Below, piece by piece: positions 7,500-21,076 of a stretch of DNA of 64,000 nucleotides. The stretch lies in assembly GCA_965197585.1 (NCBI GenBank), contig OZ240215.1, forward strand, positions 160,001 through 224,000, in the 5' to 3' direction. The translations under genes and the position numbers were made by a program. The notes under the pieces are model-generated. The model was not told the origin of the DNA, searched no databases, and saw only the letters and a program-made list of their open reading frames with translations. Every line of letters begins with the position of its first letter. The first letter of the stretch is position 1. Source of the stretch: Dehalococcoidia bacterium (GTDB lineage Bacteria; Chloroflexota; Dehalococcoidia; Plut-88900).

Positions 7500-8100
7500 T
7501 AGGAGGTGAATTCCCTCACCAAGGTGGAGAAATCTCACCACAACCTGCTGGAAATGGTGCTGCCGGGAATCGACTAGTTCGAACTGATGAAGCGCATCGT
7601 GCGGATCACCATTGCGCCGGCGGCCTTCCTTCGTTCCGGGACGGGAATCAGAACATCGCTCGGGCCTTCGAAAAGGGGGCCGACGACTACATCATGAAGC
7701 ACTTTTCCTCCACAGAACTGGTGGCGGAGAGTCAAGGCGTCCCTGCACAGGCGAGGGGTCGCATGGAGTGTGCCTCTCGAACCCTATGTGCTGAGGGACC
7801 TGACCATCAATTATGGAAACGTCTAGTGACTGGAGGGGGCCGCTCGGTGAAGCTGATCCCGACCGAATAGAAGCTTCTATTCGAGCTTTCGGTTCACGCC
7901 GGACGAGCATTGACCAACGATCAGCTACTGCGACGGGTCTTAGTACAGAGAGAGCCGGGCGATCCACAGGTGGTACGCGCCTAAGTGGGACGTCTCAGCG
8001 GCAGGCCGAGAGACCACGCCTACAGCCCAGACTACACCTTCAACGAGTCCCGGGTGGACTATCGCATGGCCAAGGGCGAGACGCAGGAACGGGAGGAGCC
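7500..8100 (+). pseudogene. Decayed OmpR/KdpE-type response regulator
   Basis: Fragments in shifting frames with stops: LLEMVLPGID*FELMKRI, IARAFEKGADDYIMKHFSSTELVA (receiver), GGRSVKLIPTE*KLL and PDYTFNESRVDYRMAK (winged-helix end). Boundaries approximate. Confidence 0.7.
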
Positions 8101-8185
8101 GTGTCCTTTGGGGCGCTGAATGGCCGAAGACTCCCAAACCGAACACCCCCGCTGCCCTGCGGCGGCATCTGAGGCAACCCGCCAG

Positions 8186-9067
8186 TCAACGGTAGGCTTT
8201 CACCTGACCATGTATGTCCAGCACCAGTTTACAAGGCCAAGACGAATACCAAAGTGAAAGTTCTTGATTTTGTCCAGTTTGGTGGGGAGTGAACAAGCCC
8301 ACGAACCCCACTACACCCGCCAGGGACACCGCGGCGCCTGCCAACACCCCCGCGGAGGACAACGCTACTAATCGGGTAGTTTTGGGGCTGGCCCCCAGCT
8401 GCCAGGCAAGCCGGTCGCCTAGTACTAGAAGGTTCAGCCGCCCTGCCGCCAGGACTGCGAGGCCTAGTCCGAGAGCAAGGTAAGGAATCGCCGGCGTGAC
8501 GTCTTCCCAACCTCGGTTGGACAAACTCCCGCTGAACAGGGACAACGCTTGCAGGCTGAAAACTCGTGCGTGAGTGAGGATGGCTGCGGCGATTGCCAGA
8601 GTCAGAGCCCCTATGGATACTCCAACTAAAGCGAGTCGAGTCGGGGTCAGGCTTTCCCGTGAAGCCAACAGGAATATGAGAAGGGCGCCGATAAGTCCCG
8701 CGGCAACCGAAAGGGAGGTTAGTCCCCAGGCCCCCACTGTAATCGCCCCGGATAAGGCCAAGGCCTGGACGATGGATGCCCCACCGCCCAACCCAAAGAT
8801 CTGGGGGTCTCCCAGTGGGTTTCGGGTAGCGCTTTGAATCAGCGATCCCGCAGCGCCCAGACACGCACCTGCCACCAGCGCTGCTACGACCCTGGGAATG
8901 CGTAGGGAACGAACTATTACCTCGGCGGTGGGGTCTCCACTGTCGGTGAAGAGGGCCTTAAGGAGTGTTGAGGCGTCCAGGTTCGCACTGCCGAAAGCGA
9001 TCCCGACAATGCAGCCTCCCAGTAAGGCAACGGCGAGGCCAGTCAGAACCAGGATCGGGCGTCGCAA
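8186..9067 (-). CDS. FecCD-family iron-chelate/cobalamin ABC permease, C-terminally truncated (probable pseudogene)
   Basis: LRIPRVVAALVAGACLGAAG, RNPLGDP..FG, LGD..A..LG, GVVGFVGLFTPH. The sequence after this is unrelated and the last TM helices are missing. Confidence 0.8.
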   Translation of the reverse strand: MRRPILVLTGLAVALLGGCIVGIAFGSANLDASTLLKALFTDSGDPTAEVIVRSLRIPRVVAALVAGACLGAAGSLIQSATRNPLGDPQIFGLGGGASIVQALALSGAITVGAWGLTSLSVAAGLIGALLIFLLASRESLTPTRLALVGVSIGALTLAIAAAILTHARVFSLQALSLFSGSLSNRGWEDVTPAIPYLALGLGLAVLAAGRLNLLVLGDRLAWQLGASPKTTRLVALSSAGVLAGAAVSLAGVVGFVGLFTPHQTGQNQELSLWYSSWPCKLVLDIHGQVKAYR

Positions 9068-10213
9068 CTATGGGGCGCTTCCTACAATTTCGGCCATGGC
9101 TTCCACGGCCTCGGCTATGCGCGGCCCCTGGTTGCGCAGGAAGATCACGACGTCGAGTTCATGCAACTGGCCACTTGTAATTGCCCGTAGGCTCGAGAAT
9201 CCGGGTATGCGAGGCAGCATCACCGAGAGTCGGGGCGCGGGTTCCGGCGCAGGTGTGATCGTGAACAGGAAGTCCGGGTCCATAGTGAGCAACTGCTCAG
9301 CCGAAATCTGGGCGAAACCCGGAAACGTCCCGCTGTCGGGCAAGTCGGCCGCCGGGTTTGACAGTTGCAGCATCGAAGTTATGGCCCCGGGGTACGATTG
9401 TGGCTTGGCGACATACAGGTTTCTGTCCGCGTCCGAGATCAGGACCAGCGCACTAGTGCCGACGCTCGTATTCCCGATCGCCGACTCCACCCGTGCCTCT
9501 ATCTCCCTAGCCGCCAGCTGAGCCCCTTCCTCCTTCCCAATAATCTGCCCCAAAAGCTTGATTCCCATCGTCACGTCCTCCAGCGAGGCCGCACGAACCG
9601 CCACCACTGGCGGTCCCAGCTGTGATAGCGGCCCTAGGAACCGTGCCTGGGTCAGTGCCTCAATTAGTATCAGGTCCGGGCGTTGGGCCGCAATCGCCTC
9701 GAAACTGGGCGAGTAGGCGCCTCCCAACTCCGGAAGGCCGAGCACCTCGTCAGGAAAAGTCGAGCTCGAGTCCCGTGCCACTGCCATACCGCCTGCAACG
9801 TAAAGCATCTCCGTCGCCGTTGGGCTGATGCTCGCTATCCGCACTGGCTTGGCTGCAATCTCCACGGGCCTGCCCATCATGTCCGTAATCTGCAATGGGT
9901 AGGGTCCCGGCATGGCCTCAGGGGTCGACGTCGGTTCAGGTTCAGGCTCGGGTGTGGCCTGGTCGGCCGGAGCCGGAGTTGGGGTGGGCACATGGGTTGG
10001 AGCAACCGTGGGCAATGGGGTCGGGGCTACGGTGGGCACGGGTGTCGGAAGCGGTGAACTCTCAGTGGGAGCCACCGTGGCAGTGGGTCGCACGGTATCA
10101 TCGCTCCATGGTCCCAAGTTTAGACACGGGGGTATGATCAGAACCAATGCCAGCGTGAAAAATAAGGATACAGCCAATACTCTAGTTCGTGTAATGATGT
10201 TCAACTTAATCAC
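9068..10213 (-). CDS. Iron-siderophore/heme/cobalamin ABC substrate-binding protein (Peripla_BP_2) with Pro/Thr linker
   Basis: N-terminal hydrophobic anchor, PT-rich linker, ITDMMGR.V.I...PVRIASISPTATEML, PSFEAI...PDLI, GPRIAEA. Confidence 0.85.
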   Translation of the reverse strand: MIKLNIITRTRVLAVSLFFTLALVLIIPPCLNLGPWSDDTVRPTATVAPTESSPLPTPVPTVAPTPLPTVAPTHVPTPTPAPADQATPEPEPEPTSTPEAMPGPYPLQITDMMGRPVEIAAKPVRIASISPTATEMLYVAGGMAVARDSSSTFPDEVLGLPELGGAYSPSFEAIAAQRPDLILIEALTQARFLGPLSQLGPPVVAVRAASLEDVTMGIKLLGQIIGKEEGAQLAAREIEARVESAIGNTSVGTSALVLISDADRNLYVAKPQSYPGAITSMLQLSNPAADLPDSGTFPGFAQISAEQLLTMDPDFLFTITPAPEPAPRLSVMLPRIPGFSSLRAITSGQLHELDVVIFLRNQGPRIAEAVEAMAEIVGSAP

Positions 10214-10390
10214 TTACTAGACCTCTCTTATGTCTTCGCGCGGCATCAAGCGCTGAATTATCCCTGTCCCGGCCCGCTACTTCACTGACGACAAAACGAC
10301 CTGGTTTCTTATGGTCCCCACGGTAAATGGTCATGGTCCATGCCGTGAAAGGATTGCCACCTGCCCAGTCCTTGAGACGGCTGCCAAGAA

Positions 10391-11731
10391 TCAGAAGGCG
10401 GGGTGTACCGCGGTTATCTTTCGTTCCGGCGATCTTGCTTCTCCCCGACCCACTCCCTTGTATTTGAAGCCCATCTTGGCCAACTCGTCAGGGTCCAGGA
10501 CGTTTCTGCCATCGAAGATGAACTTGGGTGGCAGCATATTGCGGGATATCGACCCCCAGTCAGCGCGTGAGAACTCATCCCATTCGGTCAGAAGCGCCAC
10601 CGCATGAGCTCCGAGGCAGGCCTGTTCTACAGAATCCATGAACAGCACCGAAGGTGGAAGCACGGCGCGCGCCGCTTCTGTGGCTCGGGGGTCAAACGCC
10701 TGCACCCGCGCTCCCCGCCGGATCAACTCATCGATTGCTGTTAGGGATGCTGCCCCGCGGACGTCGTCAGTGTTCGGCTTGAAAGCCAGCCCCAGGACCC
10801 CGATGGTGACACCCGATAGGTCACCCCCGAATCGGGCCGCAAGGGCCTCAACCGGCAATCTGCGCTGCCGATCGTTCACCTGCGCCACCGACTTCAGCAG
10901 CTTGAGTTCAACGCCGCTGGACACCGCGAGGTGGTTTAGTGCGCGAATGTCCTTGGGGAAGCAGGATCCGCCGTACCCTACTCCCGCCTTCACCATGCTT
11001 CCTGTCCTGGCATCCATGAAGATTCCCCTGGTCACTGCGTCTATCGAACCCCCGACCTCGTCGCACAAAGCAGCGATCTCATTCATAAACGAGATCCGAG
11101 TGGCCAGAAAGGCATTGCTGGCGTACTTGATCATCTCTGCGCTAGTGACGTTTGTGACCAGGAATGGCGCATCGATACCCGTGTGCATCTCCTTCACCAC
11201 CTTCACGGAACGACCATCAGGCGTCTCCGCACCGATGACTATGCGGTACGGAGACTGCCAGTCTTCCAGGGCTTGTCCTTCCCGCAGAAATTCGGGATTG
11301 GAAACGTAGCTCGCACCAGTCCCCCTCAACACCCGCTCCATGATGATACGGCCCGTTCCGGGCGGCACCGTACTCTTCATAATCACCACAACTCCCCTTA
11401 GGTCGAAGCGCTTAATCCAACCAAGTGCTGACCAGACCTGTCGAAGGTCCGGGGCGCCGTTGTTCATCGGCGGAGTCCCCGTGGCGATCAGGACTATGTC
11501 GCCGATCATTCCCTTCATCTCATCCTGGTGAATGAATCGCAGGTTACCCTTCTGCAGGCCCCACTTGATCCAGGCACTGAGCCCCGGCTCATACATGAAC
11601 AACCTCTGCGATTTGAGCATTTGAACGCGTTGCCGGTCAACGTCCACGCCATTGACTTGATGTCCCGTTATGGCCAGCCCTGCGGCTGCCGCCATTCCCA
11701 GATGTCCGAGCCCCAATACTGTAATTCTCAC
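10391..11731 (-). CDS. ugd: UDP-glucose 6-dehydrogenase
   Basis: GLGHLG Rossmann motif, KSTVPPGT, NPEFLREG, IKYASNAFLA, GYGGSCFPKD, GLAFKPNTDD.R, DGRN. Confidence 0.92.
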   Translation of the reverse strand: MRITVLGLGHLGMAAAAGLAITGHQVNGVDVDRQRVQMLKSQRLFMYEPGLSAWIKWGLQKGNLRFIHQDEMKGMIGDIVLIATGTPPMNNGAPDLRQVWSALGWIKRFDLRGVVVIMKSTVPPGTGRIIMERVLRGTGASYVSNPEFLREGQALEDWQSPYRIVIGAETPDGRSVKVVKEMHTGIDAPFLVTNVTSAEMIKYASNAFLATRISFMNEIAALCDEVGGSIDAVTRGIFMDARTGSMVKAGVGYGGSCFPKDIRALNHLAVSSGVELKLLKSVAQVNDRQRRLPVEALAARFGGDLSGVTIGVLGLAFKPNTDDVRGAASLTAIDELIRRGARVQAFDPRATEAARAVLPPSVLFMDSVEQACLGAHAVALLTEWDEFSRADWGSISRNMLPPKFIFDGRNVLDPDELAKMGFKYKGVGRGEARSPERKITAVHPAF

Positions 11732-11860
11732 CTGTCGTGCCTCCCGATCCTTCGGTATCCGGCTAACGCCGGGAATTCCCTGTCAGCGGTCTTCGGCGGC
11801 CGAGCGCCAGCCCCGCCGGAGCATTTCCAGAAATTGATTTGGATTACCTTACTACGGGTA

Positions 11861-11888
11861 TTGACAAATGGCAATATAGCAGTAATAT
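11861..11888 (+). promoter_or_regulatory. sigma70-like promoter for the 11958-19005 operon
   Basis: TTGACA(11861-11866)-16 bp-TAATAT(11883-11888) in the AT-rich divergent intergenic region. Confidence 0.5.
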
Positions 11889-11957
11889 CACCACAACTTT
11901 CACAATTAGGTAACACATAAATCATAAACATGCAACTACCTATTATCTGAGCTACTG

Positions 11958-14900
11958 ATGCAGCACAATGCAATTTCGCCTGACGAACAGGCCGCGATGC
12001 ACACCCCTCCTCCAGGCCCTGGCGCCAAGGATAGTCCCCGCGCAGGAGGTCTATTCTCTCTTTCTCCAATACGGATCATTGTTGCAATTACTCTTGTGGT
12101 TGCGGTTGCCATGGTAGTGGTCTTCTTCGCGGACAGGGGTCACCTGGAGGCCGCATTTTCGGGATTTAGGGCCAGACCCCTTTGGCTGCTGCTTTTCCTG
12201 GTTGCCTATACGGCAGCCTTCTTGCTGCGAGCCGTTGCGTGGAGAGTCTTGTTGGGGCCCGGTGGTGGCATTTACCGCCTTTTCGTCGCCATACAGGCTG
12301 CTTTGTTGGCAAATCACCTCCTTCCCTTCAAGCTGGGGGAGTTGGTCCGGCCTATAGTGGCCCACAGATCAGGGGTCCCACTGGTGCAGGCCACCGCAAC
12401 TACCGCAGTAGCGCGGATGTTGGACCTCGCCGCCCTCGTGGTGATCGCCGGCCTTGTCGGGCCCTTCGTTTCCCTTTCCACCGGCGACGACTTCTGGATG
12501 CAGGCTATGGCCTTCCCGGCATTGGCACTGCTTGCGGCGGTAGTATTGCTCGAGGTCATCCGAAGGTGGGGGTTGGAGACCCGGCTCCCGGCACCTGTTT
12601 TGCGCCGCTTCACCGAGTTCAGGTCACAACTCAAGCAGGTCTCCGCTGCAAGAATCGTCCACGCTGCCCTGTGGACTCTCCCGAGCTGGGTCCTGGAAGC
12701 TTCAGTTCTATTTGCGGTGGCGAGGGTGCTTGGAATCGAGCTATCTATCACAGCAGCGATAGCGATTACCGCCTTCACAATCCTGTTCCAGATATTCCAC
12801 CTGACACCCGGCGGCATCGGCGTCTATGAAGGGGTGATGTCCGGTGCCCTGTATGCCCACGGAATTCCATTTGAGGAAGGACTTGCCCTGGCGGCCCTTA
12901 CCCACGCCCTGAAATTCGCCTACTCCTACACCGTATCGCTGGCATTCACCCTTACAGCCGCGCGCCACCTGCCCGAGCTGAACCCTCTGAGCAAATTGCG
13001 AGGTTCCTCGGATGGCGCAAAGGCTGCCTCACGCTTCGAGGTCATTGCCGCCCGGCTCTGGAACGTCCTCAACGAAGGCAAGCCCTTCACACCCGTGTTC
13101 GTCCTCGGTGTCCTGGGGCTGATAAGCCTCCTCCACGTGACTGACGCCTCATACTGGCCTAAGGCCGGTATTGCTCTCCTTGCCCTGATACCCCTCTCAC
13201 TGGTCTTCTACCGTTTCGACTTTCCCCTCAAGCTGCGCGTCGCACTGTGGGTATTCCTGGGCATCTTCTTCGGCGTGTTCCGCTTCGTAGACCCGGTAGC
13301 CGCGGCGATTACCGTGGGGCTCTATATTGCTTTTACCGTCTTCCTTTGGGGTTCCGTCTACTACCACCTCCGCATCGGAACGCCGTGGACCAACTTCACC
13401 AGGTTCTGGCGGCTGGTCCTGGAAAACCCTGACCCTACCAGCGGCAATTTCTTGGAGCAGGTCCCCAAGGCCCTGCTGTTGGTCTTGTCGTTCCAATTGA
13501 TGGTCCAGCAGCCCGGACTGAGTACGGCCCTAGGATTGGAGTTCTTCTTCCTGGGCATTGGGGTGGTCGCGCTTCTGGCCCACCAGTGGTTCTTCACCTG
13601 GCCCCCGGCCCATTCGCTGGCGGCTACCCGTGCGCCATACGGCGGTCAGAGCAGTCGAGGCAAACGGTTTATAGCCATCGTCATCGATGGGTGCCGCGCC
13701 GACCGGCTGCTCGAAGCGGACACGCCGTTCATCGACCGCCTCCGGCGTGAAGGAGCAGACTATACAAACACCGCGACGGTATATCCCGCTCGGACGGTGA
13801 CGGGCTTCAGTTCCATGCTCACAGGCGCCCCGCCCAAACTCCATGGAATGCGCAGTAACTTCGTTCCCAACCTGGGAGTGAAGTGCGAATCCATATTCGA
13901 CTCTTTGCGGGCTGCCGGGATGACCGGAAAGCTGGTGGGCATTGCTCACTTGGTGGATGCCTTTGGCCATAAGGACGTCGAGACCGTCACAGCCGTCACC
14001 CACAACGACGAAATCGACAACGCCCTCGTGGCCCGGGCAAAGGCCGTCATGGATCGAGAAAACCCCGATTTGCTGGTCCTTCAACTACTGAGTGTAGACC
14101 AGACCGGCCACGCCCGTGGCAGCTACAACACCGAGTACCTCGAGAAAATAGAGATAACCGATCGCATAATCGAGGACTTCCTCGCATGGTGCCGGGAATC
14201 CGGCTACCTCGAAGATGCCACCGTGCTTATCACTTCCGACCACGGCCAAGGCATAGGCATAGGCGGCCACGGTCACATGAGCCCATCAGAGGTCCATGTC
14301 CCATGCATTATGTGGGGGGCCGGGGTGGAGCAGACCGGAGCGTTTGATAGACCCCGGTCTGTCATGGACGTAGCGCCAACCATCGCTCACTTCCTCGGTG
14401 CAGACCCTCCATCTCAGTCGGTGGGTCAGGTCCTGGGTGTCGCTGACCAATGTGAGAGTGCGAAGCCGTTGGCTGTGATAATTCCTGCCCACAACGAAGC
14501 GGAAAACCTGCCCGAGACACTCTCATCAATTCCCAGGACCCAACTGTCCAACCTCCGAATCATCGTCGTGGACGATGGGTCTACGGATGGAACCGGACAG
14601 GTCGCTCGATCGCACGGGGCCGACCTCGTGGTACGGCACGACAAAAACCGCGGGTTGGGCGCTGCCTTGAGGACAGGAATGGAAACTGCCCGGCAACTGG
14701 ACGCTCGGGCCGCGGTCTACATCGACGCTGACGGAGAATACCCGCCTTCCCAAATACCCGACCTCCTAGCCCCCATCAATGCCAGGGAGGCTGACTACGT
14801 GCTTGGCTCCCGCTACATGGGCGGCATAAAGGGCCAGTCCATCGTGCGTCGGATGGGCAACTTTTGCTTCACCGCCCTGCTGTCCCTCGCCGCCGGCCGG

Positions 14901-15140
14901 CGCATCACTGACGGTCAGACCGGCTTCAGAGCTTTCTCCCGCCGCGCCCTGGAATGCGCTGAGATCATCCATGACTACAACTACGCACAGGTCCTCACCC
15001 TGGATCTACTCAAGAAAGGGATGAAGATGAAGGAAGTTCCCATCTCTTACCAGCCCCGATCCAGAGGCAAGTCCTTCATAAGCCTCAAGTATTTATGGCG
15101 GGTACCGGTCGCCATGTTCAGACAGATGCTGAATACGTAA
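11958..15140 (+). CDS. Three-part fusion: LPG-synthase/UPF0104 flippase-like TM domain + membrane-anchored alkaline-phosphatase-superfamily domain + GT2 (DPM1-like) glycosyltransferase
   Basis: LRAVAW..LL, NHLLPFKLGELVR, TPGGIGVYE (UPF0104); VIDGCRAD, PART, DQTGH, TSDHG, GHG (AlkP/NPP metal sites); VIIPAHNE, VVDDGSTD, DADG, DGQTGFRAF (GT2). Confidence 0.85.
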   Translation: MQHNAISPDEQAAMHTPPPGPGAKDSPRAGGLFSLSPIRIIVAITLVVAVAMVVVFFADRGHLEAAFSGFRARPLWLLLFLVAYTAAFLLRAVAWRVLLGPGGGIYRLFVAIQAALLANHLLPFKLGELVRPIVAHRSGVPLVQATATTAVARMLDLAALVVIAGLVGPFVSLSTGDDFWMQAMAFPALALLAAVVLLEVIRRWGLETRLPAPVLRRFTEFRSQLKQVSAARIVHAALWTLPSWVLEASVLFAVARVLGIELSITAAIAITAFTILFQIFHLTPGGIGVYEGVMSGALYAHGIPFEEGLALAALTHALKFAYSYTVSLAFTLTAARHLPELNPLSKLRGSSDGAKAASRFEVIAARLWNVLNEGKPFTPVFVLGVLGLISLLHVTDASYWPKAGIALLALIPLSLVFYRFDFPLKLRVALWVFLGIFFGVFRFVDPVAAAITVGLYIAFTVFLWGSVYYHLRIGTPWTNFTRFWRLVLENPDPTSGNFLEQVPKALLLVLSFQLMVQQPGLSTALGLEFFFLGIGVVALLAHQWFFTWPPAHSLAATRAPYGGQSSRGKRFIAIVIDGCRADRLLEADTPFIDRLRREGADYTNTATVYPARTVTGFSSMLTGAPPKLHGMRSNFVPNLGVKCESIFDSLRAAGMTGKLVGIAHLVDAFGHKDVETVTAVTHNDEIDNALVARAKAVMDRENPDLLVLQLLSVDQTGHARGSYNTEYLEKIEITDRIIEDFLAWCRESGYLEDATVLITSDHGQGIGIGGHGHMSPSEVHVPCIMWGAGVEQTGAFDRPRSVMDVAPTIAHFLGADPPSQSVGQVLGVADQCESAKPLAVIIPAHNEAENLPETLSSIPRTQLSNLRIIVVDDGSTDGTGQVARSHGADLVVRHDKNRGLGAALRTGMETARQLDARAAVYIDADGEYPPSQIPDLLAPINAREADYVLGSRYMGGIKGQSIVRRMGNFCFTALLSLAAGRRITDGQTGFRAFSRRALECAEIIHDYNYAQVLTLDLLKKGMKMKEVPISYQPRSRGKSFISLKYLWRVPVAMFRQMLNT

Positions 15141-15220
15141 TGCCACGCTGCGGGCCGGGCGAACAAACTTAACGGCTCAAGAAGAAGAGTTCCCGCAAAA
15201 GTAACAGGAGGGATTTGAAA

Positions 15221-16507
15221 ATGGCCACTAGGGACAGAATCAGGCCTAGAGGCGTCAAGGGCTACGTCTTGGTCGCCGGTTTGGCGATTCTCTTGGCGCT
15301 GCTGCTCATTGCAGCCTGTAGCGACGACGCCGGAGAAGATCGCCCCGGCATCCAGGTAATTGACAGCGAGAGCGGCTCCGTTAGCGCATCCGCAAGCGGG
15401 TCCGTCAGTGGCACCGGAACGACGACCGGCTCAGGAACAGGGACCGTTTCGGCTACTGGAACCGGCACAGGAACAGTTTCGGCCACCGGGACCGGTATGA
15501 CGTCCGGATCTGGAGAGGGTCGAGGCCTCTGGATTCCCGTCGGTCAGGAGCCCGAGACCGAAGGGCCCACGAAGTCAGACGGTTACTACACCCCCACCAC
15601 CAACCGGGAGATTTACCAGAAGATCTCCTCCGACTACCAGGAGATAGTCAATCTCACCAACGTAATCAAAGAGGGTAATCCCTTGCCCGCAGCGGAGATA
15701 TGGCTTATGTACGAAGCGGGTACGCATACCCGCATAGGCGCACAGAGCCGCACGCTTCGGTCCTTTGCGGCCGGCACGACGCCGGGGACGTATTTCCCGG
15801 ACTCGGTGGAGTTCTACGGCTCAGCCCGCTTCCTTGACTCTCCGATATCAAATGCCATACGCGGGCGCGGAGAAGCGGAGAACTACTCCGATGCTCAGAA
15901 ACGACAGGCGATAAATAAGTCCGCCCTCAGAATCGTCTACCACTGGGCCAAGTTCTACATGATCATTGGCGGCGAGCAGATGAGGTCCGGTTTGGTCGAT
16001 GAGGCTTGGGCCATCTACGTGGGCGAGGAAGTGGACGGGGCATACCCGAACTCACTGGCGGCCACCGCCCAAAGTCGGGAGGGCAACTTCGGCCGGGAAG
16101 GCACGATCGACATTCCCCTGCGCCAGGCCATGGACAGGGCAAGACAGGCAGCTGATGAGATGGACGCCGCAGCCTATGAGGCTGCAGCTCAGGAGGTCTA
16201 CTCACGCTTTAACGCCATCTTCTACCTCGCCACGGTCAGGTACATCGGCAGCGTATCGAATGATGCGGAAGCCGGCGACCACGACAGCTTGGGGACGCAC
16301 CAGGTCGAAGCGTTGGCCTTCTACCGGTCCATTCAACCCGAGGTCGCAAAGACTGACGCGGCTGCCGACGAGACCATCGTCGCCTACCTCGTAGCCGAGC
16401 CAGACCAGATCACTACTGCGGCCCGTGACGAGGCCCTTGCTGCCCTCAACCGGACTTCATCGGCACTCCTTCTGACTGAAGATGACCTTGAAACCAGCTA
16501 CGAGTGA
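15221..16507 (+). CDS. FEA1-like (low-iron-inducible) lipoprotein with Ser/Gly/Thr-rich linker
   Basis: Lipobox LIAAC; linker SGSVSASASGSVSGTGTTTGSGTGTVSATGTGTGTVSATGTG; YTPTT start of the globular domain, VDEAWAIYVG and EALAFY motifs reminiscent of FEA1; located among iron genes. Confidence 0.55.
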   Translation: MATRDRIRPRGVKGYVLVAGLAILLALLLIAACSDDAGEDRPGIQVIDSESGSVSASASGSVSGTGTTTGSGTGTVSATGTGTGTVSATGTGMTSGSGEGRGLWIPVGQEPETEGPTKSDGYYTPTTNREIYQKISSDYQEIVNLTNVIKEGNPLPAAEIWLMYEAGTHTRIGAQSRTLRSFAAGTTPGTYFPDSVEFYGSARFLDSPISNAIRGRGEAENYSDAQKRQAINKSALRIVYHWAKFYMIIGGEQMRSGLVDEAWAIYVGEEVDGAYPNSLAATAQSREGNFGREGTIDIPLRQAMDRARQAADEMDAAAYEAAAQEVYSRFNAIFYLATVRYIGSVSNDAEAGDHDSLGTHQVEALAFYRSIQPEVAKTDAAADETIVAYLVAEPDQITTAARDEALAALNRTSSALLLTEDDLETSYE

Positions 16508-16546
16508 TAATCTCCATAACCTCATAACAATGCCAAGGTCAAGAAA

Positions 16547-17581
16547 ATGAAAACAGAGTTAAGTAAGAGCCAGATTGTAAAGATGCTGATTGCCGCCACC
16601 CTAGTGGTGGCGGCAATCAGCGCTTCCCTGGCATGTGGGGGCGGCGATAATACCTTGACCGTCTACTCGGGCCGGTCTCAAAACCTGGTGCATCCACTCC
16701 TGGAGGAGTTCATCGAGCAGAGCGGCATAAATGTGCGCGTCAAGTATGCGGGCAGTTCCTCCATCGCAGCCACCGTGTTGGAGGAGGGGGAAAACACCCC
16801 GGCAGACGTGGTGTTCATGCAGGATCCCGGCACTCTCGGCGCCCTCGCCGATGCCGGTAGGCTCGAAGAGTTGCCTGAAGAACTACTTGCCAAGGTGGAT
16901 CCGAACTTCAGGTCTCCTGACGACCTGTGGATAGGCACATCCGGCCGAGCTCGGACCCTGGTCTACAACACCAAGGCCATTGACCCCGAAGTTGACCTTC
17001 CCGCATCCATAAGGGACTTCACTAAACCCGAGTGGCGAGGCCGTATAGGCTGGGCGCCCCAGAACGCATCCTTCCAGACCTTCGTCACTGCCTTTCGCGT
17101 AAAGTGGGGAGAGCAGGCAGCTCGGGAGTGGCTGGAGGGCATCCATGCCAACGAACCGCGCCAATACCCCAACAACGTCACCACGGTAGCCGGAACGGCC
17201 AGGGGAGAGGTGGACGTAGGTTTCGTGAACCACTACTACCTGCAGAGATTCCTCGAGGAAGAAGGGCCCGACTTCCAGGCCCGTAACCACTTCCTCGGCG
17301 ATGGCGATCCGGGTAGCCTCATTCTGGTAGCCGGGGCAGGGATCATTAAGGAGTCCGAAAACAAGAAAGCTGCAGAGCAATTCATCGAGTTTCTGCTTTC
17401 CGACATCGCCCAGAACTACTTCTCCGAGAGCACCAAGGAATATCCCTTGGCATCGGGTGTAGCTCCTGATGCAGGGCTTCCTCCCCTGGACGCTTTGGAC
17501 CCCGTACAAATTGACCTTGGGTCTCTAAGCGACCTCCAGGGCACACTTGATTTGCTTCGGGAGGTAGGCCTCATCCCGTGA
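16547..17581 (+). CDS. Fe(III) ABC transporter substrate-binding lipoprotein (FutA/FbpA type)
   Basis: Lipobox SLAC, LTVYSGR, EEG.NTPADV, SGRARTLVYN, N.SFQ, FVNHYY (Fe-binding tyrosines), EYPL. Confidence 0.9.
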   Translation: MKTELSKSQIVKMLIAATLVVAAISASLACGGGDNTLTVYSGRSQNLVHPLLEEFIEQSGINVRVKYAGSSSIAATVLEEGENTPADVVFMQDPGTLGALADAGRLEELPEELLAKVDPNFRSPDDLWIGTSGRARTLVYNTKAIDPEVDLPASIRDFTKPEWRGRIGWAPQNASFQTFVTAFRVKWGEQAAREWLEGIHANEPRQYPNNVTTVAGTARGEVDVGFVNHYYLQRFLEEEGPDFQARNHFLGDGDPGSLILVAGAGIIKESENKKAAEQFIEFLLSDIAQNYFSESTKEYPLASGVAPDAGLPPLDALDPVQIDLGSLSDLQGTLDLLREVGLIP

Positions 17582-19005
17582 CCCAAGTATCAAGCTTCAT
17601 TCGCCGGCGAGGGCTGCCGCTCAGCGCGGCAGCCCTCTTTCTCTTGCTGCTCGGCGCCTACATGTTCTCGATAGACATACGAGCGAGTCGGGGCGCGTCA
17701 ATAACAGGCGATGAGCCCTTTTACCTTCTCACTACCCAGAGCCTGATCCAGGACGGTGACCTGGACCTCACCAACCAGTACGACGCCAGATCTTACGAGA
17801 GTTTCTTTGATCACCCAGATGGGCTCTGGCAGCAATCTGTGCGCTCCCCGGACGGGCGTCTGCTAAGTCCCCACAACCCGGGACTTTCATTGCTTCTGAT
17901 CCCGGGATTTGCATTGGGTGGCCTTGTGGGTGCGCAATGCCAGTTGCTTCTAATCAGCGCTGCGGCCTTGACCCTCGCCTACCTACTGGCTAACCGTCTT
18001 TCCAAGAGTCGACGCCTCAGCTGGACCCTGACCATGGTTGTGGGTCTCTCAGCCACACCGTTCATCTACTCTACCGAGATCTATCCAGAGTTTCCTGCAG
18101 CACTTGCCTTGCTTGTCTGCCTCTTGATGGTTACCCGGCAAAAGAAGCTCTCCGCGGATGATGGGTTGTACATGGCAGTCGCGCTGACTGCGCTATGCTG
18201 GCTCGGAGTCAAGTATGCGCCCTTGGCCGCGCTTGTTGCGGCTTACTTTCTCTACAGGTCAGACAAATGCGGGAAGTTTACTTTATTGACGTCCGGGGCA
18301 GTGTCAGGGGCGTACTTCATCTGGTTCCACCTCTCTACTTTCGACAGCCTTACCCCGTACAACGTTAACGTGGTCTACGCCGGCCAGTCCTCCTTCGAGT
18401 TGATTGACAGTCACGTATCGTTTATCGACCGGTTCTACAGGCTATGGGGCCTTTTCATGGACCGGCGCTTCGGGATCGGCAGATGGACCCCCATTTTCTT
18501 GGTTGCGGTACCCGCCATGATTCTATTGCTCCCACGAGACGGGAATCGACGGCTCCTTCTCGGTCTCGTAGTCATCCAATTGCTTATCGCCACCTTCGTG
18601 GCCATAACAATGATGGGTTGGTGGTTTCCCGGCAGAACCATGCTGACCGTTTTGCCATTGTTCGTAGTCCCGCTCACCTTGATCGCCTCCAGGATGGGTC
18701 GACGATTAAGATGGATGATGGTGGGCTTGGCCACCTACAGCATTGCGGTCACTGGAGGTCTCGCATACGCCGGTCATACACGAGAAGTCACCATAGCAGT
18801 GGACCCGTTTGACATGGAATTCCCCCTGTTTAGGGGACTGTCGTGGGCCTTTCCCCAATACACCTACTGGAATTGGGAAACCTGGACGCTGACGGTCATA
18901 TGGCTGGCCATTGCTGCTATAGCGATTGGAGTAACTGCAAGACACATCTTTGGTAACGCTAGCATGAAACCCTCAGCCACCGACGGAGACTTAGAACCTA
19001 CTTGA
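17578..19005 (+). CDS. Multi-pass membrane protein of the GT-C (ArnT/PMT-like) glycosyltransferase type
   Basis: TM1 followed by TGDEPFY..., SPHNPGLSLLL, YSTEIYPE, ~11-13 TM helices, PGR. Its GTG start overlaps the futA stop. Confidence 0.6.
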   Translation: MTQVSSFIRRRGLPLSAAALFLLLLGAYMFSIDIRASRGASITGDEPFYLLTTQSLIQDGDLDLTNQYDARSYESFFDHPDGLWQQSVRSPDGRLLSPHNPGLSLLLIPGFALGGLVGAQCQLLLISAAALTLAYLLANRLSKSRRLSWTLTMVVGLSATPFIYSTEIYPEFPAALALLVCLLMVTRQKKLSADDGLYMAVALTALCWLGVKYAPLAALVAAYFLYRSDKCGKFTLLTSGAVSGAYFIWFHLSTFDSLTPYNVNVVYAGQSSFELIDSHVSFIDRFYRLWGLFMDRRFGIGRWTPIFLVAVPAMILLLPRDGNRRLLLGLVVIQLLIATFVAITMMGWWFPGRTMLTVLPLFVVPLTLIASRMGRRLRWMMVGLATYSIAVTGGLAYAGHTREVTIAVDPFDMEFPLFRGLSWAFPQYTYWNWETWTLTVIWLAIAAIAIGVTARHIFGNASMKPSATDGDLEPT

Positions 19006-19984
19006 GATCCCGCGCCCATTCCCGATTCTCCATATACCAGTCCACAACCCGTCCGATCCCCTCTTCTACACCAATTGTCGGTCTCCACTTCAATAGCATG
19101 CCGGCACGGGTGACATCCGCCCACGTGACTAGTGGGTCGGTGCGATGCCTCTCCCGAAATGCGATCCGAGCCTTCCTGTCGACCCTCTTCTGTATGATGT
19201 TGATGACCTCATTGATGGATACGGGACTCTCATTGCCGAGGTTGACTGTCTCATATCCCTCAAGACCCAGCGCCGCCACTGTACCCCGGGCGACGTCAGT
19301 CACGTAGGTGAAATCCCTCCGCTGGGTTCCATCTCCATAGACTGTTATAGGTTCACCCTCGACGATGCCCCTTACGAAACGGAAAATGCTCATGTCAGGC
19401 CGACCCGCTGGCCCATACACTGTGAAGTAGCGCAAGACCGATGCATCGATCCCGTACAGATGATGGTAGGAATACAGAAGGGTTTCCGCGGCTATTTTGG
19501 ATGCGGCATAGGGAGACAATGGTCGGCTCGATTGCGCATCCTCGCTGACCGGCCCCTTAATTTCAGAGCCGTATACGCTCGACGTGGAGGCAAGAATAAA
19601 TTTTCCGATATCGAGCTCCTTGCACATTTCCAGCAGGTTAACGCACCCTAGGACATTTGCCTCATAGTAGGCTCGGGGCTCTTCCACGCTACCTCCGACC
19701 CCAGCCCGGGCAGCGAAATTAATGATCACCGTTATTGGATTGACTTTATGTTCCTGCCGGATCGTGGATTTCAACGAATCAAGGTCGGAAATATCCAGCT
19801 TCTTAAAGGTGAATCCTGGGTTCGCAGTGAGACTGTCAAGTCGCCACTTTTGCAGCCGAGCGTCGTTCCCACCGTGCAGGTTATCGATTCCAAGCACCCT
19901 ATGACCCTCTTCAAGCAGAAGCTTGGCCACGTTGGACCCTATGAAACCCGCACAGCCTGTGACAAGGACGTTCAAATAAGTCAC
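18998..19984 (-). CDS. NAD-dependent nucleotide-sugar epimerase (UDP-glucuronate 4-epimerase-like)
   Basis: VTGCAGFIG, ASTSSVYG, SPYAASK, LRYFTVYGPAGRPDM, RDFTYV.D. Confidence 0.85.
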   Translation of the reverse strand: MTYLNVLVTGCAGFIGSNVAKLLLEEGHRVLGIDNLHGGNDARLQKWRLDSLTANPGFTFKKLDISDLDSLKSTIRQEHKVNPITVIINFAARAGVGGSVEEPRAYYEANVLGCVNLLEMCKELDIGKFILASTSSVYGSEIKGPVSEDAQSSRPLSPYAASKIAAETLLYSYHHLYGIDASVLRYFTVYGPAGRPDMSIFRFVRGIVEGEPITVYGDGTQRRDFTYVTDVARGTVAALGLEGYETVNLGNESPVSINEVINIIQKRVDRKARIAFRERHRTDPLVTWADVTRAGMLLKWRPTIGVEEGIGRVVDWYMENREWARDLK

Positions 19985-20264
19985 GTCTTCCTGATCAATT
20001 CCATTGCCGCTTTCGGTTGCCAGAAAACTCCGACATTCCTACCTTCAGAGGGCTAATCCAGGCAAGTACAGTCCAGTTACTGGACGGCCTTTTTGCATCA
20101 GTAGCCGTTTACTCTCCCAGGTCATTCGTCCCACACCTGATAGCAGGATAGAATCGGGCCGGGTCCAAGACCGATTCTATCCTACACCGGATACGGCTAC
20201 CGCAAACTACAGATTGATTGAGAAACTTTTCCGTTAATGTGCTTACAAATGCTCCATATTAGTA

Positions 20265-20293
20265 TTGACATTGAAGCTTGTCTTGTCTAGACT
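20265..20293 (+). promoter_or_regulatory. sigma70-like promoter for bfd-bfr
   Basis: TTGACA(20265-20270)-17 bp-TAGACT(20288-20293). Confidence 0.55.
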
Positions 20294-20338
20294 ACCGACA
20301 ATCTGTGCATAGCCTATAGCAATGAGGAAGCCCCCACT

Positions 20339-20584
20339 ATGTTACTATGTGTGTGCAAAGGCATAAGGGTCTCTGAGGCAGTCGATGCGGCCAGATCGGG
20401 CAACAGGTCACCTGCGTCATTAATCAACAGGTTTGGGCTCGAAGACGATGATTGTTGCGGCAGGTGTGCGAGTGACATCGTCCGGCTGACCAGCCTTGTG
20501 AACGGGGAACTCGCCAGAGCAGATGCGAGGCACAGCTCCGTCCAGTATAATAGCCCCAGGGTACCTGCTACCGTCTCGATCTAG
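20339..20584 (+). CDS. bfd: Bacterioferritin-associated (2Fe-2S) ferredoxin
   Basis: MLLCVC...CCGRC pattern directly upstream of bfr. Confidence 0.8.
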   Translation: MLLCVCKGIRVSEAVDAARSGNRSPASLINRFGLEDDDCCGRCASDIVRLTSLVNGELARADARHSSVQYNSPRVPATVSI

Positions 20585-20599
20585 TAGAGGAAGGCACAT

Positions 20600-21076
20600 T
20601 TGAGGGCTAAAGAAGGCGTAGTTGAACGCCTGAATAACATACTGACGATTGACCTGACGGCCATAAACCAGTACTTCATCCATTCGGAGATGTGCAAGAA
20701 CTGGGGTTTTAACCGGATGGCCCACAGCCTCCGGTCCAACAGCTTCGAGGAGATGAAGGATGCCCAGAACCTGATCCAACACGTCCTCTATCTGGAGGGA
20801 ATCCCTAACCTGCAAAGGCTCAATCAGGTAAAAGTTGGGGAGTCGGTCCTGGAGGACCTACAGCTGGATCTTCAGTCGGAGAAAGAGGCGGTTGAGATCC
20901 TAACGGAAGCGATCACACACTGCGTACGGGTGGAAGACTATACGACCCGAGGCCTGCTCGAAGGGATGGTGCGCTCAGAGGAAGAGCACATCGACTGGCT
21001 TGAGACCCAGTTGGAAACCATAAATACCATAGGACTGGAACTGTACCTCAACCAGCAGATCCACGAAGACGACTGA
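20600..21076 (+). CDS. bfr: Bacterioferritin
   Basis: LTAINQYF.H, EEMK.A, LEG.PN.Q, EEEHIDWLETQL; 158 aa. Confidence 0.93.
   Translation: MRAKEGVVERLNNILTIDLTAINQYFIHSEMCKNWGFNRMAHSLRSNSFEEMKDAQNLIQHVLYLEGIPNLQRLNQVKVGESVLEDLQLDLQSEKEAVEILTEAITHCVRVEDYTTRGLLEGMVRSEEEHIDWLETQLETINTIGLELYLNQQIHEDD

Follow-up and report, generated by a model that had tools for sequence, protein, structure and literature searches.

In a Dehalococcoidia bacterium, the genes for a lipid-carrier glycosylation machinery stand together with those of two iron lipoproteins, here in the order fusion>FEA1>FbpA>GT-C; their association recurs far beyond chance, in 72–73 of 80 related loci. We give roughly an even chance to the reading that this operon and the flanking ugd and epimerase genes form one unit for Fe(III) capture, in which a surface lipoprotein acquires its mature form through a dedicated lipid-carrier glycosylation pathway. 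The initial annotation of the window, the whole 64,000-nucleotide stretch of contig OZ240215.1 analyzed here, had proposed an iron-starvation pathway that loads a uronic acid on a polyprenyl phosphate, flips it, and transfers it to a surface acceptor. As a whole, this interpretation is partly supported.

Organization of the locus

All genes named in the initial annotation were recovered as open reading frames with Pfam and NCBIfam searches, and the strand layout of nucleotides 8186–21076 is as it described. The forward-strand operon has one strong promoter-like site, a sigma-70-like TTGACA-16-TAATAT (11861–11888, 10 of 12 matches). Of 72 regions upstream of fusion genes, 65 contain a TTGAC -35-like element. 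Downstream follow the genes of a 1060-residue fusion protein (11958–15140), an FEA1-related lipoprotein (15215–16507), an FbpA/FutA/HitA-class ferric-iron-binding lipoprotein (16547–17581), and a 475-residue membrane protein with a predicted GT-C fold (17578–19005), whose start overlaps the FbpA stop by 4 nt. A reverse-strand gene for a short-chain dehydrogenase/reductase (SDR; 18998–19984) is convergent with the GT-C gene and overlaps it by 8 nt. On the other side, ugd, encoding UDP-glucose 6-dehydrogenase (10391–11731, reverse strand), diverges from the operon. An IdeR- or Fur-type operator was looked for at the operon promoter and none was found; IdeR-like boxes are present at the nearby imelysin cluster and at the second fbpA operon.

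The reverse strand also carries genes for a Peripla_BP_2 binding protein (9068–10213, Pfam and NCBIfam), whose linker is rich in Pro and Thr, and a FecCD permease (8186–9067, PF01032, 181.6 bits), which had been counted as part of the unit. They are kept in just 2/80 and 1/80 loci, respectively. The FecCD gene is present as annotated, but the copy is 3′-truncated: it aligns to residues 1–262 of a 325-residue paralogue encoded at another site and is not followed by a gene for a cognate ATPase. An intact paralogous binding protein-permease-ATPase operon lies at G000:C1:~1885215-1888037, and the pair in the window is a partial duplicate outside the conserved unit.

The surroundings are rich in iron genes, with Bfd-Bfr and imelysin/DHOR/HTTM. 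The forward-strand genes for a Bfd-like ferredoxin (20339–20584, Pfam) and the bacterioferritin Bfr (20600–21076, TIGR00754, 180 bits against a cut-off of 125.6) have their own promoter-like site at 20265–20293. In 16/80 loci, a Bfr gene is found no more than 10 kb from GT-C, and Bfd-Bfr is iron storage loosely linked to the operon.

The fusion protein and the GT-C membrane protein

The fusion protein consists of four parts, delineated by Pfam, NCBIfam and an AlphaFold2 model (pLDDT 80.6). Residues 46–321 form an MprF-type flippase-like domain (LPG_synthase_TM), and six predicted transmembrane helices with a highly conserved loop span residues ~377–545. Residues 570–826 match Phosphodiest, Sulfatase and Metalloenzyme. 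The last part, residues 838–1060, is a polyprenyl-phosphate GT2 of the Dpm1/ArnC/GtrB type with a Glycos_transf_2 match at 840–1000. Foldseek placed it nearest to the Dol-P-Man synthase 5mlz (E = 2.2e-10), ArnC and GtrB. AglJ and a haloarchaeal Dol-P-hexose transferase lead its NCBIfam matches, with PgfS matching weakly (E = 6.4e-10). The four parts constitute a single open reading frame in 66 of the 69 loci that have all of them, and the catalytic motifs are invariant in 25/25 aligned sequences. The domain initially called a phosphatase is indeed present; in detail, it belongs to the NPP-type alkaline-phosphatase superfamily, with Xac NPP as its nearest Foldseek match, and is predicted to be cytoplasmic, since it comes after the six predicted transmembrane helices and runs straight into the GT2 domain.

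The protein encoded by 17578–19005 matched no Pfam family. Its AlphaFold2 model (pTM 0.77) found GT-C enzymes as the best Foldseek matches, and VIA-align matched it to, among others, Pmt1/2 (Z 20.7), ALG12 (20.5), ArnT (19.0) and PglB (19.0). The top 20 are all GT-C proteins with Z-scores of 11.1–20.7, and the next match has a Z-score of 7.4. A D45-E46-P-F-Y motif follows the first transmembrane helix, in which D45 and E46 are invariant among 26/26 sequences. The protein thus models as a membrane glycosyltransferase with a GT-C fold, whose family is unannotated. The initial annotation had staked its reading on this fold beforehand, and both the model and the all-GT-C top 20 bear it out. The model contains no extracytoplasmic soluble domain. 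The three-component logic of GT2, flippase and GT-C is likewise supported by the Pfam, NCBIfam and Foldseek matches.

The iron lipoproteins and the Gly-Ser/Thr tag

The FEA1-related lipoprotein matches NF038033 over its full length (E = 3.4e-40), although with 138 bits it stays below the curated cut-off of 250, and Pfam Fea1 is not matched. Its protein-language features lie nearest to the PF07692 Fea1 and DUF4856 clusters (score 0.91). The lipobox Cys35 is followed by a G-E-D-R-P motif (residues 40–44), a (Gly-Ser/Thr) repeat tag (residues ~53–100; nucleotides 15371–15514) and a conserved FEA1-like domain of ~320 residues. This combination of a conserved GEDRP motif and a (Gly-Ser/Thr)n tag on FEA1 is a new observation. 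The tag is conserved: 79 of 86 sources show an [ED]xRP motif with Gly/Ser/Thr repeats behind it. In many relatives the tag sits behind a long Ala/Gln-rich stalk, not beside the lipid anchor. Exactly one protein of the GEDRP-plus-repeat kind, FEA1, is encoded in the genome of the window, where such Gly-Ser/Thr repeats occur in just two reading frames, FEA1 being one.

The closest solved relatives of FbpA are 7w3w (2e-79) and 4elo (1.7e-61), with which its Tyr-Tyr pair aligns. In the window, nothing but a short Gly linker follows the lipobox LAC of FbpA, and in many relatives a Pro/Thr/Ala-rich linker of 30–100 residues is found, which is not conserved. The locus encodes no FbpBC permease/ATPase, so that FbpA is an orphan binding protein there; a complete fbpABC operon resides elsewhere in the genome (G000:C1:1108168-1111808). 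The acceptor would be more narrowly defined than the Ser/Thr-rich linkers of the iron lipoproteins, which had been one initial suggestion: it is most probably a single tagged protein, FEA1. FbpA in the window has no such linker. From its exclusive co-occurrence with the GT-C gene, described below, and the uniqueness of the tag in the genome, FEA1 is likely the best candidate for receiving the sugar.

Sugar supply

Ugd carries three UDPG_MGDP_dh Pfam domains and matches TIGR03026 with 360 bits (cut-off 189.8). The SDR is most likely a UDP-glucuronate 4-epimerase, as had been annotated, judging from its solved relatives 5u4q (6.7e-67), the 6zl6/6zla series (1.2e-62) and MoeE5 6kv9 (4.4e-48); UDP-GlcA decarboxylase and GalE match less well (~1e-40). 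Homologues of Ugd and of the SDR lie no farther than 10 kb from GT-C in 35/80 and 47/80 loci, respectively; between the SDR and GT-C genes, the median gap is 96 nt. A second variant of the FEA1/FbpA/flippase-GT2/GT-C core lacks the phosphatase domain and has a UDP-galactopyranose-mutase (UGM)-like flavoenzyme instead of Ugd, which tblastn did not find in the fetched stretches. A uronic acid is therefore not universal to the system. The NPP-type domain goes with the Ugd/epimerase variant.

Conservation of the arrangement

We fetched 80 species-level loci by the GT-C alignment alone and scored presence within 10 kb. FEA1 and FbpA are each found in 73/80 loci, the flippase/six-helix/alkaline-phosphatase parts in 72/80 and GT2 in 71/80, which are not counts of independent events because all loci come from a single phylum. 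The recurrent linkage of the glycosylation-gene homologues to FEA1 and FutA, as predicted initially, is hence confirmed. The order fusion>FEA1>FbpA>GT-C holds in 53 of the 80; in 15, FEA1 and the fusion gene are inverted downstream of GT-C, and others show further orders. The same core appears in distant families and in another class (G033, G037 and G325).

FEA1 was not detectable in seven of the 80 loci. Three of these are on contigs of 2.6–11.4 kb or end near the match. The others comprise L075 and L095, with fusion and FbpA present, L091, with the fusion and a homologue of a cupredoxin-like protein, and L087, with part of FbpA only. In L075, FbpA itself bears the tag, and in G037 and G185 a neighboring cupredoxin-like lipoprotein also does.

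Presence and absence of FEA1 and GT-C agree both ways in the sampled genomes. Among 41 relatives, FEA1 was found in five, all with a close GT-C, which occurs in six; FEA1 was not found in the sixth genome (G021), a 380-contig assembly. Among 301 genomes of the phylum, FEA1 occurs in three, and close GT-C relatives (E ≤ 1e-51) in the same three. Within the genus, the unit is patchy (2/9 genomes).

Comparison with known systems

The closest known systems are Ppm1/Pmt, AglD/AglS and Pgf. In actinobacterial O-mannosylation, lipoproteins, among them solute-binding proteins, are O-glycosylated on Ser/Thr-rich linkers by the polyprenyl-phosphate-sugar synthase Ppm1 and the GT-C enzyme Pmt, and yeast Pmt1/Pmt2 is the best structural match of our GT-C model. 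However, Ppm1/Pmt is a general, genome-wide system with a different sugar and an unlinked PMT bearing MIR domains, whereas the enzyme here is dedicated to its operon and shows neither a PMT/PMT_2 Pfam match nor a MIR domain. In the Rhizobium RgtE/RgtA-D system, where RgtE makes the lipid-linked GalA donor, and in Arn (Ugd, ArnC, ArnE/F, ArnT), a GT2 loads undecaprenyl phosphate with a Ugd-derived sugar, which is flipped and then handed to the acceptor by a GT-C; our GT2 and GT-C count ArnC and ArnT, respectively, among their best structural matches. The acceptor in those systems, however, is lipid A or the LPS core of diderms, and Dehalococcoidia are not known to have lipid A. The locus also lacks the ArnA/ArnB/ArnD chemistry, and the flippase type differs.

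The archaeal step adds the last sugar to the S-layer N-glycan, which AglS serves to complete, and lacks a six-helix or NPP insert and a link to a transporter. In AglD of Haloferax volcanii, a Dpm1-type GT2 is described as fused to an MprF-type flippase-like domain, and archaeal genes of this kind adjoin that of a PMT/STT3-like membrane enzyme, resembling our locus in both respects (PMC5898192). The GT2 is N-terminal in AglD but C-terminal in our fusion. The Pgf cluster of Streptococcus mutans, as described, co-encodes machinery and Ser/Thr-rich substrates: PgfS (GT-A), PgfE (epimerase), PgfM1/PgfM2 (GT-C) and the adhesins Cnm/CnaB/CbpA, a disordered region of which is shielded from proteolysis by the glycosylation (PMC12041528). 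The unit proposed here would resemble it in a lipid-linked sugar made by a GT-A, a donor from an epimerase, and GT-C transfer outside the cell to Ser/Thr-rich disordered regions (PMC12041528). Pgf differs in its GT-C of the YfhO family, in GalNAc instead of a probable hexuronic acid, in modifying many unlinked membrane proteins instead of one tagged candidate, and in having no fused flippase, NPP domain or iron link.

Algal FEA1/ISIP2a (phytotransferrin) is described as a family of extracellular proteins with a link to the high-affinity uptake of Fe(III); iron is bound by Ostreococcus Fea1, and a role in concentrating it at the membrane has been proposed for FEA1 (PMC7676907). The kinship is distant, as indicated by the Pfam and NCBIfam results above, and in contrast to algal FEA1, ours is a repeat-tagged lipoprotein from a bacterium, paired with FbpA instead of FTR1/FOX1.

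A putative mechanism and its alternatives

The acceptor, the sugar and the iron regulation are inferred. Judging by family membership, Ugd and the 4-epimerase would make UDP-GlcA and UDP-GalA in the cytoplasm, and the GT2 domain, with its Dpm1/ArnC/GtrB-type fold and motifs, would load the sugar onto polyprenyl phosphate. By analogy with AglD, the MprF-type domain of the same polypeptide may flip the lipid-linked sugar. At the inner face, the NPP-type domain might target a phosphodiester or pyrophosphate in either the carrier lipid or the donor. Outside the membrane, GT-C would transfer the sugar to Ser/Thr residues of the FEA1 tag behind GEDRP. The glycosylated tether could stabilize and extend the stalk holding the FEA1 domain at the cell surface, charging it in the Ugd variant, and FEA1 might hand Fe(III) to FbpA, which would dock on the FbpBC encoded elsewhere. 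Against this reading, a membrane-embedded GT-C without a soluble domain would have to reach a tag that in many relatives lies far from the lipid anchor, and Ugd and the epimerase are nearby in only part of the loci. The seven loci without a detectable FEA1, the variant with a UGM-like enzyme and the failure to find an IdeR- or Fur-type operator at the operon promoter also count against it.

The same two points of reach would suit a pathway that is identical except in its acceptor, which would be a lipid of the membrane or a polymer of the envelope close to the transporter, the co-encoding with FEA1/FbpA reflecting a shared need, e.g., an envelope remodeled so that the lipoproteins work. Most characterized bacterial three-component systems do modify lipids or polymers (ArnT lipid A, GtrB-type systems O-antigen or LTA), and the Z-score of ArnT is within 2 units of the protein O-mannosyltransferases. 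We nevertheless hold this to be unlikely, at perhaps one chance in several: a general envelope modification would be expected in FEA1-less genomes too, whereas close GT-C was found only in FEA1 genomes except the fragmented G021, and the conserved GEDRP-repeat tag, which moves onto other cluster proteins where FEA1 is missing, would be otherwise unexplained. Distinctly less probable is that the pathway serves, as initially proposed, to display the carboxylates of uronic acids, on the tag or on lipids, so that the polyanionic surface accumulates Fe(III) when iron is scarce. The flanking Ugd and epimerase-like SDR, the many sugars that long Gly-Ser/Thr repeats could carry and the iron-rich neighborhood fit this idea, but carboxylates cannot be the general rationale when the same core occurs with a UGM-like enzyme and without a detected Ugd; moreover, the operon promoter yielded no iron-responsive operator, and with FEA1 and FbpA there are already protein sites for Fe(III).

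That GT-C glycosylates FbpA, or both lipoproteins, instead of FEA1 seems improbable. Even though fbpA is the gene nearest to GT-C (median gap 99 nt) and the protein has a long linker in many relatives and the tag in L075, the short Gly linker in the window and the poor conservation of FbpA linkers relative to the FEA1 tag speak against it. A mere co-travel of uncoupled glycosylation and iron genes on an accessory island would agree with the patchiness within the genus and with the other iron systems and truncated duplicate in the region. It is strongly disfavored, and the most improbable of all, as the linkage has withstood inversion, reshuffled gene orders, a change of sugar-supply genes and passage between families and between classes, with presence and absence agreeing both ways.

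With two iron-capturing lipoproteins nearly always encoded beside a three-step sugar-attachment machine and a likely acceptor tag on one of them, iron uptake in these uncultured Dehalococcoidia seems to require a glycosylation step of its own.

Gene Organization of the Locus

Every gene named in the initial annotation was recovered in the ORF map and in Pfam and NCBIfam scans. On the reverse strand, these place a FecCD permease gene (8186-9067), the gene of a Peripla_BP_2 binding protein with a Pro/Thr-rich linker (9068-10213), and ugd (10391-11731). The forward-strand operon starts at a strong promoter-like site (11861-11888) and encodes a 1060-residue fusion protein (11958-15140), a FEA1-related lipoprotein (FEA1, 15215-16507), an FbpA/FutA-type lipoprotein (FbpA, 16547-17581), and a polytopic membrane protein of 475 residues (17578-19005) without a Pfam family at E ≤ 0.01, whose gene start overlaps the fbpA stop by 4 nt in the ORF map. 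An SDR gene (18998-19984) is convergent with the operon, and bfd and bfr (20339-21076) lie downstream of it. Just past the locus, a cluster of imelysin, di-haem oxidoreductase (DHOR), imelysin, and HTTM genes occupies 22560-27806. Further along (34797-48231), the genes of a histidine kinase and a LuxR-type response regulator stand ahead of that of a 3022-residue secreted protein, which combines a subtilase S8 domain with 16 CARDB repeats and fn3 domains; two ankyrin-repeat proteins come next.

The FecCD gene had been counted among the iron-uptake genes of the locus. The gene is present but truncated, corresponding to residues 1-262 of a 325-residue paralogue, and has no ATPase. The region looks like a decayed partial duplicate of an operon at approximately 1885215-1888037 on contig C1 of the same genome. 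Within 7370-9067, the approximately 800 nt downstream of FecCD hold only ORFs without a Pfam family. Two ABC ATPase genes of the oligopeptide type (5390-7368; DppD/DppF-like, oligo_HPY) abut the truncated region and do not represent the missing FecE.

FbpBC are absent from the locus. A complete fbpABC operon lies outside the window, approximately 0.93 Mb from the locus (C1:1107566-1111808), next to a DtxR-family regulator gene in divergent orientation and to an IdeR-like box that overlaps the promoter. The operon's FbpA is 55% identical to that of the window, whose orphan FbpA probably finds its membrane partner in this operon.

Domain Architecture of the Fusion Protein

The fusion protein was modeled with AlphaFold2 with a pLDDT of 80.6. 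Residues 46-321 are assigned by profile matches to an MprF-type flippase-like domain, scoring 122.9 bits against PF03706 (cut-off 33.4) and 40.2 bits against TIGR00374, slightly below the cut-off of 43.2. Six helices with a strikingly conserved loop connect this domain to residues 570-826, which match PF01663 with 89.9 bits and align to the Xac nucleotide pyrophosphatase/phosphodiesterase (NPP; 2gsn), including the region of the nucleophilic Thr. All 25 aligned sequences share the metal-ligand and nucleophile residues D577, T613/T615, D714, H718, D761, and H762; by these motifs, the domain belongs to the NPP/alkaline-phosphatase (AP) superfamily. Stand-alone Bacillota proteins of approximately 490 residues share the AP-superfamily Pfam domains (language-model search, score 0.96-0.97). 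Both ends of the six-helix block are rich in Lys and Arg. Because of this charge distribution and the direct junction of the NPP domain with the following GT2 domain, the NPP domain is predicted to face the cytoplasm. Foldseek superpositions of the helical and AP parts on PbgA/YejM and MCR-1 gave r.m.s.d. values of 16-19 Å and are not taken as homology to the periplasmic EptA/LtaS architecture.

The C-terminal GT2 domain (residues 838-1060) scores 105.5 bits against PF00535, and its top NCBIfam matches, AglJ, Dol-P-hexose transferase, and PpgS, all fall under the equivalog cut-offs. The best Foldseek match is Dol-P-Man synthase (5mlz, E 2.2e-10, 28% identity), followed by ArnC and GtrB. The domain has a GT-A fold with DxD-type motifs, and all 25 aligned sequences retain D873, D923, and D925. 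The structural proximity to Dol-P-Man synthase, ArnC, and GtrB thus makes it a predicted polyprenyl-phosphate sugar transferase of the Dpm1/ArnC/GtrB type. The fusion is a single ORF in 66 of 69 loci.

The 475-Residue Membrane Protein Has a Predicted GT-C Fold

The initial annotation had proposed that the membrane protein encoded at 17578-19005 would model as a GT-C fold, and structure comparison bears this out. The AlphaFold2 model, built from 26 sequences, has a pLDDT of 70.5 and a pTM of 0.77. GT-C enzymes or GT-C-like subunits fill the top 20 places in VIA-align (Z 11.1-20.7, 273-342 aligned residues), including Pmt1/Pmt2 (Z 20.7), ALG12 (20.5), ArnT (19.0), and PglB (19.0), before the next match drops to Z 7.4. 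Foldseek agrees, with ArnT, STT3, and Emb as the best matches. The model thus places the protein in the GT-C glycosyltransferase superfamily, and we refer to it as GT-C. Only the fold comparison is informative here, as the 26-sequence profile found no solved chain in the PDB at E ≤ 10. Directly after the first transmembrane helix (residues 4-30), an acidic motif, D45-E46-P47-F48-Y49, is invariant in 26 of 26 aligned sequences; it lies in the first extracytoplasmic loop, which has low model confidence. Solely from the adjacent Dpm1/ArnC-type GT2 and flippase-like domain, we infer that GT-C uses a polyprenyl-phosphate-linked sugar donor.

Membership in the PMT family (GT39) was rejected since the protein has no PMT or PMT_2 Pfam match, no MIR domain, and no PDB match by profile. 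Nor is there any soluble loop domain in its 475 residues. At best, GT-C would work like a PMT enzyme, not being a member of that family.

Putative Iron-Binding Lipoproteins and a Probable Sugar Nucleotide Epimerase

FEA1 matches NF038033 (E 3.4e-40) over positions 5-405 of 406, with 138 bits against a curated cut-off of 250, and gave no match to PF07692 (Fea1) in Pfam at E ≤ 0.01. Its language-model features are nearest to the Fea1 and DUF4856 clusters (score 0.91), and no solved relative was found by sequence. The role of FEA1 in algae is itself only partly established (PMC7676907).

FbpA has solved relatives in 7w3w (2e-79), 4elo (1.7e-61), and 6iwf (3.4e-61). Its Tyr-Tyr pair aligns with the YY of solved ferric-binding proteins, a pair that provides iron ligands in FbpA-class proteins. 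The protein is accordingly classed, by sequence, as a close relative of the ferric-iron-binding FbpA/FutA/HitA proteins.

Among solved proteins, the SDR is most closely related to 5u4q (6.7e-67; its deposited name is dTDP-glucose dehydratase), followed by the 6zl6/6zla series (1.2e-62) and MoeE5 (4.4e-48), compared with only about 1e-40 for the UDP-GlcA decarboxylases (UXS) and GalE. 6zl6 and MoeE5 are UDP-GlcA 4-epimerases. No NCBIfam equivalog scored above its cut-off for the SDR. It is likely a UDP-glucuronate 4-epimerase because it is nearer to 6zl6/6zla and MoeE5 than to the decarboxylases and GalE.

Linkage of GT-C to Iron-Uptake Genes

We fetched related loci with the GT-C alignment alone, leaving the iron genes outside the query. 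At one genome per species, 188 stretches encode a GT-C relative, and the best 80 of the 188 were kept with 10-kb flanks. Neighbors were scored by tblastn with the window proteins (E ≤ 1e-8, at least 50% coverage). As the initial annotation had supposed, the homologues recurrently lie beside iron genes: among these best 80 loci, FEA1 and FbpA were each found in 73, the flippase, six-helix, and NPP parts of the fusion each in 72, and GT2 in 71. The epimerase was present in 47 and Ugd in 35, followed by imelysin within 10 kb of GT-C (22), Bfr (16), the Peripla_BP_2 binding protein (2), and FecCD (1). The seven loci lacking FEA1 are three on very short or edge-limited contigs (L050, L079, and L090) and L075, L087, L091, and L095. 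The gene order fusion-FEA1-FbpA-GT-C occurs in 53 of the 80 loci; another 15 have FEA1 and the fusion downstream of GT-C in inverted orientation, and 12 show other orders. The loci are labeled as Dehalococcoidia, Tepidiformaceae, or Chloroflexota MAGs.

The phyletic distribution shows the same association, in counts that come from related genomes and are not independent events. Among 41 relatives, FEA1 is present in five (the window's own genome, G008, G010, G033, and G037), and a close GT-C in these five and in G021, a 380-contig assembly in which it lies on a 2.2-kb contig. The remaining 35 carry neither; in one of them, G014, GT-C has two distantly related paralogues (E about 1e-17). In a sample of 301 phylum genomes, FEA1 occurs in three. 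GT-C matches at E ≤ 1e-15 were found in 12 of these genomes, and close ones (E ≤ 1e-51) only in the three FEA1 carriers; the other nine are 26-33% identical paralogues within larger proteins. GT-C adjoins the FEA1 gene in both carrier genomes outside the class. One carrier, G325, has FEA1, FbpA, flippase-GT2, GT-C, an FAD enzyme, the epimerase, FbpB, and FbpC on one strand in this order. Persistence through rearrangement and across classes is a stronger argument than the counts. Within the genus, 2 of 9 genomes carry the unit, which therefore acts like an accessory module whose genes come and go together.

The two closest carriers seem to hold an eroded, or else a wrongly assembled, copy of the unit. 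In G010 (locus L014, 5739-11283), all that remains of the fusion ORF is the GT2 part (501 residues), with no flippase or NPP domain by Pfam, and GT-C has an in-frame TGA. In G008 (L017/L013), GT-C is split near residue 420, and the neighboring binding-protein and DHOR genes are fragmentary.

A metagenome scan with the FEA1 alignment yielded 28 loci, mostly on short contigs. Close FEA1 relatives show FbpA, FbpBC, the fusion, and GT-C where contigs are long enough (L103, L104, L105, and L108). For 19 distant FEA1 relatives (23-38% identity), tblastn, an insensitive search here, gave no GT-C or flippase-like match, and ORF maps of these high-GC stretches were unreadable; one of this group (L115) has a weak GT2 match about 9 kb away.

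A Repeat Tag on FEA1 as Candidate Acceptor

Following the lipobox Cys35, FEA1 carries the sequence G-E-D-R-P (residues 40-44), a short hydrophobic stretch, and approximately 48 residues of Gly-Ser/Gly-Thr repeats. The arrangement of [ED]xRP, [GTS][IV]xVI, and Gly/Ser/Thr repeats, which we call the tag, recurs in 79 of the 86 sources examined (85 tags in total), including genomes of other classes. GEDRP with repeats is found on exactly one protein of the window's genome, and across that whole genome just two reading frames, FEA1 being one, contain such repeats. At L075, where FEA1 is missing, FbpA bears the tag. In G037 and G185, the cupredoxin-like lipoprotein of the cluster bears it as well, and a second FEA1 copy of G185, not adjoining GT-C, is without it. 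The close GT-C subfamily and the tag always occur together, a pattern that would suit an enzyme and its cognate substrate. Counting against the tag as the GT-C substrate, it follows a long Ala/Gln-rich stalk, not the lipid anchor, in many relatives. A predicted complex of GT-C with FEA1 residues 34-130 scored 0.01 against a mark of 0.32 and carries no weight either way.

Many of the related loci (L022-L096) encode FEA1 proteins of 800-950 residues in which two FEA1 domains stand in tandem and the GEDRP tag is preceded by a long, probably helical stalk rich in Ala/Gln/Glu; FEA1 of the window has one domain and no stalk. The cupredoxin-like lipoprotein of approximately 190 residues (L015 15743-16333 in G037; L100 11230-11796 in G185) lies between or beside FEA1 and FbpA in some relatives and carries ExRP with a Gly/Ser repeat. 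It shows a weak match to the EfeO N-domain (E 4.4e-4) and a Cys/His/Met spacing like that of a type-1 copper site. The window's genome encodes a 45% identical homologue of its C-terminal part (approximately 2094882-2095277), in which no such tag was found.

A Variant With a Different Sugar Supply

A fusion without the NPP domain occurs in G033, G037, G325, and locus L097, and tblastn found no Ugd in the stretches fetched from these four. A 462-residue flavoenzyme, with UDP-galactopyranose mutases (UGM) as its best solved relatives (4dsg, E 2.6e-15), follows GT-C in the three genomes and lies ahead of the fusion in L097. This UGM-like enzyme is missing from all 72 NPP-containing loci. This NPP-less variant with another enzyme therefore leaves FEA1, FbpA, flippase-GT2, and GT-C as the conserved core, and the sugar supply of the system is exchangeable. 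The initial annotation had seen the rationale of the system in a carboxylate-rich surface. This view is weakened because the sugar supply is exchangeable, the core being found also beside a UGM-like enzyme with no Ugd detected.

Candidate Signals of Iron Regulation

The window's genome encodes two Fur-family genes and one DtxR-family gene. For 11700-19100, sequencing data comprised five DNA-type entries from two studies and no RNA entry. An IdeR/DtxR scan with a 19-nt box consensus found good sites in the window only upstream of the imelysin cluster, at 22203 (2 mismatches) and 22248 (5 mismatches). No site in the 3.43-Mb genome matches better than the former, and one further genome-wide site lies in the dtxR-fbpA intergenic region (1107864, 4 mismatches). 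The two boxes (22203-22266) lie downstream of a TTGACA promoter element. The ugd-fusion intergenic region of the window holds no IdeR-like site at ≤ 6 mismatches. Of 72 upstream regions, 35 have a site at ≤ 7 mismatches, where mononucleotide shuffles give about 12.5, a weak enrichment, and 1.69 Mb of related loci contain only one site at ≤ 4 mismatches. A Fur-box consensus gave nothing above shuffles, and a k-mer motif search of the upstream regions returned only promoter elements and clade-specific palindromes.

A Possible Mechanism and Its Relation to Known Systems

Lipid-carrier three-component glycosylation is well known from LPS, teichoic acids, S-layers, and, recently, disordered regions of streptococcal proteins, and Ppm1/Pmt, Arn, and Rgt are functional analogues. 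In the locus described here, Ugd and the epimerase would make UDP-GlcA and UDP-GalA, the GT2 domain would move the sugar onto polyprenyl phosphate, the MprF-type domain would flip the lipid-linked sugar, and GT-C would pass it to the tag. The glycosylated tether would then hold the FEA1 domain, which may feed FbpA and the distant FbpBC.

A more specific joint reading is that a GEDRP-directed GT-C loads the FEA1 repeats with hexuronic acids. It would be a single-substrate system, building an Fe(III)-concentrating, polyanionic, "proteoglycan-like" brush on a monoderm surface that feeds FEA1 and FbpA, and lipid-linked uronic-acid synthesis would gain a new accessory step in the cytoplasmic NPP domain. 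We consider this combination improbable as a whole.

The closest organization is that of the Pgf cluster of S. mutans, which unites a GT-A, an epimerase, GT-C enzymes, and Ser/Thr-rich substrates (PMC12041528). All four kinds of gene are present at our locus, the likeness being one of organization only, known from the genes. The Pgf GT-C enzymes belong to the YfhO family, unlike the GT-C of the window. Pgf glycosylation protects a disordered region from proteolysis (PMC12041528). Also close is the archaeal AglD-type GT2-flippase fusion with a neighboring PMT/STT3-like enzyme (PMC5898192). A preprint surveying MprF-like ("PplT") domains reports, in its available text, N-terminal GT-A fusions in Euryarchaeota and GT-B fusions in Chloroflexi; a C-terminal GT-A or NPP fusion, as found here, is absent from the list in that text (10.1101/2022.03.11.483950).

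The feature is real, conserved, and previously unannotated. Literature outside subscription journals and supplements yielded no description of the cluster and no three-component glycosylation co-inherited within a metal-uptake operon. We see in the locus a variation on the three-component glycosylation already known, built into an operon for Fe(III) uptake and equipped with a tag that can be predicted. If this model is correct, GT-C would stand for a new family with a recognition tag of its own, so that enzyme and substrate could be paired from sequence, and the compact single-polypeptide synthase-flippase with its short tag might serve as a glyco-engineering module. The model would also provide the first functional handle on bacterial FEA1-like proteins, and it would mean that an environmental lineage that is widespread and for the most part uncultured needs a dedicated glycosylation step to acquire iron.
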